A program made the position numbers and the translations under genes. Below, one piece after another: positions 1 through 794 of a DNA stretch of 794 bases; the stretch's first letter is position 1; each line of letters starts with the position of its first letter. The stretch comes from Escherichia coli. Lineage in GTDB: Bacteria; Pseudomonadota; Gammaproteobacteria; Enterobacterales; Enterobacteriaceae. The stretch is taken from NCBI RefSeq assembly GCF_003334765.1, contig NZ_QOWT01000098.1. The stretch is one strand, 5' to 3'. The notes below the pieces were generated by a model. The model made no database searches and was not told the DNA's origin. It worked only from the letters and a program-made list of their open reading frames with translations.

Positions 1-79
1 ATGACTCATGATGAACCCTGTTCCATGGCTCCAGATGACAAACATGATCTCATATCAGGGACTTGTTCGCACCTTCCCT

Positions 80-118
80 AAAATAAACATTGCTTCATAT
101 GTTCAACTATGCGTTAAT
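80..118 (+). promoter_or_regulatory. Predicted sigma70 promoter of the csp gene: A-rich UP-like element (80..89, AAAATAAACA), -35 TTGCTT (90..95), 17-bp spacer, -10 GTTAAT (113..118); predicted TSS about 125..127
   Basis: Hexamers read directly from the sequence with canonical 17-bp spacing. The layout (AT-rich UP tract abutting a TTGCxT -35 and a cTTAAT-like -10) resembles the cspA promoter as I remember it. The predicted TSS sits immediately upstream of the cold-box-like element. Not experimentally mapped. Confidence 0.45.
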
Positions 119-126
119 GATTGCGT

Positions 127-143
127 CGGTTTGAAGAACAGAC
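127..143 (+). promoter_or_regulatory. Cold-box-like element at the 5' end of the leader (CGGTTTGAAGAACAGAC)
   Basis: Sequence CGGTTTGAAGAACAGAC closely resembles the cspA leader start (recalled as CGGTTTGACGTACAGAC), differing only in a central trinucleotide. In cspA this region is implicated in transcription attenuation and autoregulation. Comparison is from memory, not alignment. Confidence 0.5.
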
Positions 144-256
144 GATATACGAAGTAGTTTACTAAAGCAGTTCTCATTTCAGGTGTTATTCACTTATTCC
201 TTCTTTGAGTCTCTCCAATTAAGTACGAAGTCGTTTCTGTTATGCAAACCATTTAT

Positions 257-269
257 GCCGAAAGGCTCA
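257..269 (+). promoter_or_regulatory. Upstream box GCCGAAAGGCTCA, conserved cspA-family leader element; can form a GCC/GGC stem with a GAAA (GNRA) tetraloop
   Basis: Exact GCCGAAAGGC at 257..266, followed by TCA. The cspA, cspB, cspG and cspI leaders share a 13-nt upstream box (GCCGAAAGGCACA in cspA) just 5' of the SD that enhances translation. The short self-complementarity is visible directly. Confidence 0.6.
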
Positions 270-273
270 AGTT

Positions 274-278
274 AAGGA
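274..278 (+). promoter_or_regulatory. Shine-Dalgarno / RBS for the csp CDS (AAGGA), 7-nt spacer to ATG 286
   Basis: AAGGA at 274..278 within TAAGGAAT, optimally spaced to the start codon. Confidence 0.8.
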
Positions 279-285
279 ATGTAGA

Positions 286-501
286 ATGTCAAATAAAATG
301 ACTGGTTTAGTAAAATGGTTTAACGCTGATAAAGGTTTCGGCTTTATTTCTCCTGTTGATGGTAGTAAAGATGTGTTTGTGCATTTTTCTGCGATTCAGA
401 ATGATAATTATCGAACCTTATTTGAAGGTCAAAAGGTTACCTTCTCTATAGAGAGTGGTGCTAAAGGTCCTGCAGCAGCAAATGTCATCATTACTGATTA
501 A
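286..501 (+). CDS. cspB: Cold-shock protein, CspA family (CspB-like), 71 aa, complete ORF with stop TAA at 499..501
   Basis: ORF-track translation [71 protein letters not shown] has the cold-shock domain hallmarks: RNP1-like KGFGFI and RNP2-like VFVHF motifs, and the MSxKMTG(I/L)VKWFN N-terminus. The 71-aa length and the N-terminal MSNKMTGL match E. coli CspB as I recall it, not the 70-aa CspA, CspG or CspI. Start ATG 286 is preceded by SD AAGGA (274..278) with a 7-nt spacer. Paralog identity was not verified by search. Confidence 0.9.
298..312 (+). promoter_or_regulatory. Downstream-box-like motif ATGACTGGTTTAGTA within codons 5-9 of the csp CDS
   Basis: Matches the cspA downstream box (recalled as ATGACTGGTATCGTA) at 12 of 15 positions. 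The element is reported to enhance translation at low temperature, but the proposed base-pairing with 16S rRNA is disputed. It may simply reflect conserved codons for KMTGLV. Confidence 0.35.
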
Positions 502-648: not shown

Positions 649-794
649 TCAGGAAAAGTATGCTAACCATTGTGGTGAAGTGCAGGTTTGCTGCATGAAT
701 AGTTTTACAGCAGAAGCTAAGGAAGGTGCGAATAAGCGGGGAAATACTTCTCGGCTGACTCAGTCATTTCATTTCTTCATGTTTGAGCCGATTT

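Follow-up and report, generated by a model that had tools for sequence, protein, structure and literature searches.

The cspB promoter and leader of Escherichia coli between two IS5 fragments, compared with other cspA-family cold-shock genes

Four genes of the cspA family in Escherichia coli are cold-inducible, and one of them, cspB, has a promoter and leader architecture that has been under study since the 1990s and an RNA thermometer behaviour that was probed directly in 2025. In dimethyl sulfate (DMS) probing of cspB, cspG and cspI RNAs of K-12 DH5alpha, made by transcription at either 37 °C or 10 °C, the 37 °C form was a large stem-loop that sequesters the ribosome-binding site (RBS) as well as the AUG, and the 10 °C form was a shorter, register-shifted stem-loop within the 5′ untranslated leader that leaves the RBS and AUG free (PMC13271884). 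Each downshift in temperature raises the level of cspB mRNA, and an upshift lowers it by as much as three orders of magnitude (PMC3704898). Here we analyse a 794-nt stretch of E. coli DNA (assembly GCF_003334765.1, contig NZ_QOWT01000098.1; hereafter, the window) that the first-pass annotation had read as a complete cspA-type cold-shock expression cassette driving a csp gene. The gene is very probably cspB with its native promoter and leader, here lying between two fragments of IS5. Positions are those of the window and features lie on the plus strand unless stated otherwise; coordinates of the cspB promoter count from the putative start of transcription at base 125.

The window consists of three parts, namely IS5 (1–77), cspB DNA (78–720) and IS5 again (721–794). 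With high confidence, founded on sequence identity, we assign 78–720 to the native promoter, leader and coding sequence (CDS) of E. coli cspB. Over its whole length (−47 to about +596, including 219 nt 3′ of the cspB stop), this segment shows 100% identity to K-12 cspB with its flanks, to K-12 derivatives and to unrelated E. coli strains; copies of 97–100% identity occur in several temperate Escherichia phages and in roughly 1,600 of the 5,426 complete genomes of E. coli. The CDS (286–501; 71 amino acids and a stop) is the sole long open reading frame (ORF) in the window and is annotated as cspB in RefSeq; its product scores 144.3 bits against NCBIfam NF007679 (CspA subfamily; cut-off 130). 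In K-12, cspB (b1557) lies in the Qin prophage, with the Q-like antiterminator ydfT and cspF on one side (cspF is 300 bp upstream of cspB) and, after a strong downstream terminator, ynfU, the holin gene essD and the lysozyme gene rrrQ on the other; Qin-type lambdoid prophages carry it as a ‘moron’ in the interval that separates the Q antiterminator from the lysis genes. The cassette itself is already known and ordinary, in keeping with its earlier description as textbook and not novel, and beyond correct annotation its significance is small.

The promoter comprises a −35 hexamer TTGCTT (90–95; aligned with TTGCAT of cspA), a 17-nt spacer and an extended −10 element, TGc plus GTTAAT (TGCGTTAAT, 110–118), which aligns with TGgCTTAAT of cspA and is identical in cspG and cspI. 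Beside the −35 lies an A-tract (TAAAATAAA, 79–87, that is, −46 to −38) that resembles a proximal UP-element subsite (7/9 to AAAAAARNR) and keeps the same spacing to the −35 in cspA, cspG and cspI. Both hexamers are weak, with 3/6 and 4/6 positions agreeing with the consensus. Judged by these motifs, the cspB promoter is a weak-hexamer sigma-70 promoter supported by its TG extension and by the proximal A-tract, which we regard as a putative UP-like element. To follow these elements beyond E. coli, we used 80 diverged homologues (72–92% protein identity) from species-representative Enterobacterales genomes, 75 of which entered a promoter footprint anchored solely on the motif GGTTTG-N4-5-CAGAC. 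Information in this footprint peaks at −44 to −40 (A-tract), −35 to −33 (TTG), −15/−14 (TG), −10 to −7 (TAAT) and +1; positions −46 to −38 are 82% A+T, and the +1 column (window base 125) is a purine in 64 of the 75. Both the A+T-rich UP tract beside the −35 and the extended −10 are conserved in the paralogues and in the 75 homologues, and the form TGnNTTAAT is present in 44/80. The footprint speaks for the promoter with its TG extension and UP-like tract and for transcription starting at 125; it is no substitute for start-site mapping.

The 5′ untranslated leader (125–285) would start at G125 (161 nt) or T126 (160 nt), and position 1 of the Rfam model discussed below aligns at 125. Homology, the Rfam start and the footprint together predict a length of 160–161 nt, in line with the roughly 160 nt estimated in the first-pass annotation. 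Leader lengths of 159, 161, 156 and 145 nt have been given for this group. In PMC6719143 the series is 159, 160, 155 and 145 nt, with 160 nt for cspB. Among 80 viral-contig cspB loci from IMG/VR, the promoter polymorphism C112A occurs with T121C in 23, and five further loci carry a cluster of differences at 78–103 that looks like the shift left by a 1-nt indel. In the leader, the changes seen most often among cspB alleles are G244A and A248G, which 13 IMG/VR loci carry together; 4 have G244A alone.

At the 5′ end of the mRNA lies the cold-box hairpin GGUUUG-AAGAA-CAGACG (128–144; box GGTTTGAAGAACAGAC, 128–143). The corresponding motif, GGTTTG-N4-5-CAGAC, is found in 75/80 homologues at 147–207 nt 5′ of the ATG, and 97% of the hairpin's cells are paired in a 79-sequence MAFFT alignment that was fitted to no structure, where double changes from GC to UA occur. 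The ‘upstream box’ GCCGAAAGGCUCA (257–269), of the class type GCCGAAAGGCNCA and present here as GCCGAAAGGCTCA, contains a GCC-GAAA-GGC hairpin (257–266), is identical in cspA and cspG and ends 4 nt 5′ of the Shine–Dalgarno sequence (SD). The exact GCCGAAAGGC box (hairpin 257–266) is found in only 10/80 homologues; the GCC/GGC stem has 95% of its cells paired, and in other genera its loop is longer or the stem itself is extended; by this comparison the exact box is a feature of the Escherichia/Citrobacter clade and the GCC...GGC hairpin is general. The SD, AAGGAA (274–279), stands 6 nt 5′ of the ATG at 286, and most of the 80 homologues carry AAGG at −14 to −11. The ‘downstream box’, AUGACUGGUUUAGUA(AA) (298–314; box ATGACTGGTTTAGTA, 298–312), begins at codon 5, is kept in 75/80 homologues and forms the 3′ arm of the helix that closes the 37 °C structure described below. 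The order of elements proposed in the first-pass annotation (A-rich UP tract, promoter, leader, cold box, upstream box, SD and downstream box) is thus present in full within 80–312, the A-tract starting at 79, and such a set goes far past what chance would produce.

Alignment of cspB with cspA, cspG and cspI of MG1655, the comparison that the first-pass annotation had proposed, showed each of these elements to be conserved: all four paralogues retain the blocks AAAATAA, TTGC, TG-N-(G/C)TTAAT, GGTTTG and GCC-GAAA-GGC, the SD and codons 1–10. Between cspB and cspG, identity is 70.6% in the core promoter and 75.8% in the leader, compared with 45–47% in the flanks (that is, the background of the aligner), and only 9 of 24 four-fold synonymous sites of the CDS are identical. 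Given that the leader is far more alike than either the flanks or the synonymous sites, it is under purifying selection well beyond the SD. The first-pass annotation had named a lack of leader conservation past the SD as grounds for giving up the cassette, and the alignment does not show such a lack.

Rfam RF01766 (cspA thermoregulator) matches over its full length at 125–517 with 158.8 bits (E = 2e-43; threshold 78), and the same model gives 500.8 bits for cspA, 159.3 for cspG and 112.8 for cspI. When its consensus is laid on cspB, 73 of 97 ungapped pairs are standard (including 24 of 32 pairs between leader and CDS), and 15 more are gapped. Across the 79 homologues, the whole RF01766 structure has 67% of cells paired, compared with 32–47% when partners are slid, with several helices below 50%. 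The minimum free energy (MFE) fold of 125–330 or 125–360 is a single large stem-loop. In it, the leader arm UUUACUAAAGCAGUUCUC (158–175) of a long-range closing helix pairs with 300–314, as it also does in the consensus folds; an anti-SD, UUCCUU (197–202), is the partner of the SD (274–279) in the closed form; and the AUG pairs with 187–189. A consensus fold of the four paralogues yields the same closing helix, and in the homologue alignment this helix has 76–89% of cells paired over 76 distinct sequences, compared with 25–61% for the whole tested structure with partners slid. Leader 165–173 is also a partner in alternative long-range helices of the cspA model, and one segment with two mutually exclusive partners is what a switch needs.

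On the basis of these folds, and assuming that RNA from this locus behaves as its K-12 counterpart, we suggest the following course of events. The mRNA would start with the cold-box hairpin. At 37 °C, it would take the closed stem-loop, in which the SD is held by UUCCUU, the AUG by 187–189 and codons 5–10 by leader 158–175; as far as modelling goes, the computed MFE folds reproduce the published 37 °C form. At 10 °C, it would instead take the shorter, leader-only stem-loop, freeing the RBS and the AUG, and cspB mRNA would accumulate only in the cold, as the literature on the identical K-12 sequence indicates. The cold-induction logic proposed for the locus in the first-pass annotation (that is, strong and mainly post-transcriptional) is supported, given that the sequence is cspB and that this behaviour is documented for the identical K-12 sequence (PMC3704898, PMC13271884).

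Several results weigh against the assignment of a native, thermosensing cspB cassette, or limit how far it can be carried. A generic sigma-70 scan returned no plus-strand promoter in the window; we attribute this to the weakness of the hexamers in a promoter that would rely on its TG extension and A-tract. The cspB leader alone scores only 25.4 bits against RF01766, so the score of the full match reflects mostly homology of the coding sequence, as the model covers the whole mRNA. De novo folding of the 79 homologues with RNAalifold gave essentially no consensus (−0.97 kcal/mol), and named helices were therefore tested instead. The long-range helices are conserved with little true covariation, in part because one of their arms is constrained by coding (the KMTGLVKW codons). 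The closing helix as a covarying, family-wide helix was considered and rejected: its central pair C162:G310 is confined to the cspB/cspG clade (11/76), and the bulk of its pairing reflects a near-palindromic TTTA(G/C)TAAA that is conserved on both sides; the 80 viral-contig cspB loci, at 97–100% identity, are of no use for covariation. In equilibrium folding at 10–42 °C neither the SD nor the AUG opened in the cold (unpaired probability of 0.02–0.14, and of 0.02–0.03 for the SD), and the penalty for forcing 270–315 open is 15.8 kcal/mol at 37 °C and 31.7 kcal/mol at 10 °C. As the open form lies so far above the closed form, thermodynamics alone cannot model the switch, and we infer from these models that the open form in the cold would be a co-transcriptional kinetic trap rather than an equilibrium state. 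Finally, IS5 separates cspB here both from the native distal region and from the strong native terminator downstream of 720, so that transcript ends and upstream inputs could differ from those in K-12.

The insertion elements themselves can be placed precisely. Window 1–77 (minus strand) is the 5′ end of the left IS5, with the left inverted repeat (IRL) ending at 77, a weak ins5A promoter and the ins5A start codon at 9–7, and it is transcribed away from cspB; it matches the last 77 nt of a complete 1,195-bp IS5 of strain Z226-5 at 77/77 positions. Its ins5A promoter has a −35 GTGCGA (72–67) and a −10 GATCAT (49–44), both on the minus strand, as these elements are defined in PMC11894529. The second IS5 (721–794, minus strand) is a 3′ end, on the side of the right inverted repeat (IRR), and agrees at 72/74 positions with the initial 74 nt of the IS5 in Z226-5 as read on the plus strand. 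IS5 annotations underlie the matches of 1–77. Lying in direct orientation, the two fragments enclose a cspB unit of 643 bp that begins and ends with the IS5 target CTAA (78–81, that is, −47 to −44, and 717–720); both are native K-12 sites, as alignment with K-12 shows, and for the first the alignment covers the cspF–cspB intergenic regions of both K-12 and Z226-5. The left IS5 ends at −48, 48 bases 5′ of the start, leaving the conserved A-tract intact by one base. The cassette called complete in the first-pass annotation is accordingly complete from −47 onward, whereas the DNA upstream of that point is IS5 rather than native.

Two alternative accounts of regulation at this locus need to be weighed, the first of which concerns the downstream box. 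In the original model, this element boosts translation in the cold by pairing with an anti-downstream-box of 16S rRNA. The motif is indeed present at 298–312 and widely kept, and work from the Inouye laboratory, as cited in PMC6386945, found the downstream box to be needed for cold induction. That source also cites studies in which enhancement occurred without mRNA–rRNA pairing (O’Connor 1999 and La Teana 2000) and by which the 16S pairing model is regarded as disproved, and the conservation of the box is explained by the KMTGLVKW codons together with pairing to leader 158–175. We therefore find the rRNA-pairing account scarcely credible. The downstream box named in the first-pass annotation is present as sequence, although the 16S rRNA mechanism once attached to it is not accepted in those cited studies; the folds link this old ‘box’ to the 3′ arm of the 37 °C closing helix, and we infer that it would matter as a helix arm rather than through 16S rRNA. 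The second account holds that IS5 at −48 materially rewires cspB transcription, either by activation or derepression or by weakening it through the replaced upstream DNA. The end of IS5 at window 77, one base from the A-tract, invites this idea, as do the IS5 insertions 5′ of promoters that are known activators (PMC2753651, PMC11894529) and the composition of −57 to −47, which is 71% A+T in the csp family and 27% A+T in the IS5 terminus found there. As at glpFK, bgl, flhDC and fucAO, where IS5 activates, the element here sits in a CTAA a few tens of bases 5′ of a promoter. Activation at glpFK, however, depends on a 177-bp ‘IB’ region (an IHF site and A-tracts) at the IS5 3′ end (PMC2753651), whereas the 5′ end (IRL and ins5A promoter) abuts cspB; the fusion promoter at fucAO reads through IS5 from its 5′ end (PMC11894529), whereas the left ins5A is on the minus strand, so that a promoter of this type would point away from cspB; and cspB is not a silent operon. 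Moreover, K-12 itself has no A+T-rich native sequence at −57 to −48 (GGCTGGATGT), and homology among the paralogues does not reach upstream of −47, so no conserved promoter element was lost. Such rewiring is therefore unlikely, though we would give it some weight, and the comparison of sequences favours a left IS5 that spares all conserved promoter elements and probably changes the regulation of cspB little.

The bracket itself may be read in other ways than as two separate insertions into a native cspB region. One such reading takes IS5-cspB-IS5 for a composite transposon, or for a tandem or circular unit generated by IS5, which would mobilize a self-contained cold-shock cassette, given that the direct-orientation ends enclose a unit that holds the whole gene and starts one base before the A-tract. 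Searches for both junctions gave no match in the 5,426 complete genomes of E. coli, in phage records, in the plasmids of PLSDB or in the 80 best viral-contig cspB loci, and JGI metagenomes held no exact match to the left junction. Set against mobilization, both junction CTAAs are native in K-12, as two independent simple insertions would give; IS5 at a neighbouring CTAA in another strain marks the region as merely a frequent target; and the window takes in no more than 77 and 74 nt of the two IS5 copies, their outer ends lying beyond it. The strain is Z226-5, whose IS5 is flanked by CTAA on both sides and was independently inserted 3′ of cspB at a different CTAA (window-equivalent 663–666), 54 bp from the one used here, and the cspB 3′ region appears to be a recurrent IS5 target. 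We think a mobile unit quite improbable; as it stands, the IS5-bracketed cspB is a minor oddity of this strain that would be of interest only if mobile or amplified. If it were, through a composite transposon, a tandem array or an excised circle, a minimal and self-sufficient module between the A-tract and the point 219 nt 3′ of the stop would turn the dosage of a cold-shock gene into a mobile trait. A further account, in which assembly produced the IS5 flanks as an artefact and at least one junction is not as drawn, relies on the shortness of the window (794 bases), on a left IS5 of exactly 77 nt (a common assembler k-mer length) and on the same lack of any other record with either junction in the collections searched. 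The 77-nt left flank and the short window suggest a short-read contig bounded by a repeat, yet such a contig still needs reads that span each junction, and the junctions lie precisely at IS5 termini beside CTAA, which is the signature of transposition and not of a chimera; we hold this account to be very unlikely. The reading of 78–720 as native cspB DNA, probably entered by IS5 at two existing target sites, is the one that we retain.

Both flanks bear on transcription around cspB. On the left, the ins5A promoter now has an A/T tract of cspB at −43 to −51 (window 44–96, minus strand), and by analogy with the fucAO fusion promoter the cspB A-tract might in principle raise expression of the ins5A transposase as an UP-like or ‘fusion promoter’ element. 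On the right, beyond a weak hairpin at 680–696, no convincing intrinsic terminator was found 3′ of cspB in the window, and the strong native terminator (CCCGCTCAGGCGGGTTTTTT), which in K-12 lies about 70 nt beyond the equivalent of window 720, is cut off from cspB by the right IS5, so that cspB transcripts may run into IS5, antisense to ins5A. Between the cspB stop and this junction, a perfect SD (TAAGGAGGT, 598–606) stands 6 nt 5′ of the ATG of an 11-codon ORF, MKQWLAYLAKS (613–648), that is unannotated in RefSeq K-12. The exact GGTCCAATACATG context is kept in 68/80 phage-borne copies and AAGGAGG is intact in 66; the ORF is always 11 codons long, and the peptide varies (L5P; KS to IT or KP). 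As a remnant of ymcF (which follows cspG) or ynfQ (which follows cspI), this ORF was rejected, as it shows no similarity to either.

After K-12 cspB itself, the closest described system is cspG, the nearest paralogue of cspB, which shares CTAAAATAAA, TGCGTTAAT, GTCGGTTTGAA, GCCGAAAGGC and the downstream box, has an RF01766 score about equal to that of cspB and behaves, like cspB, as a two-state thermometer (PMC13271884). Similarity between the two loci starts exactly at CTAAAATAA (window 78), so that the boundary of the paralogous module coincides with the IS5 target site, and each gene is divergent from a cspF/cspH-type paralogue. cspG differs in being chromosomal rather than prophage-borne, in being followed by ymcF and ymcE, and in its protein (56/71 identity to CspB). 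The cspA mRNA thermosensor, which RF01766 represents, has in common with cspB the promoter type, cold box, upstream box, a leader of 159–160 nt and long-range pairing between leader and CDS. Its leader, however, is only 61.8% identical to that of cspB, and its helix between leader 190–200 and CDS 317–325 is largely broken in cspB; conversely, the perfect pairing of 158–166 with 306–314 around the central C162:G310 belongs to the cspB/cspG clade alone and not to cspA.

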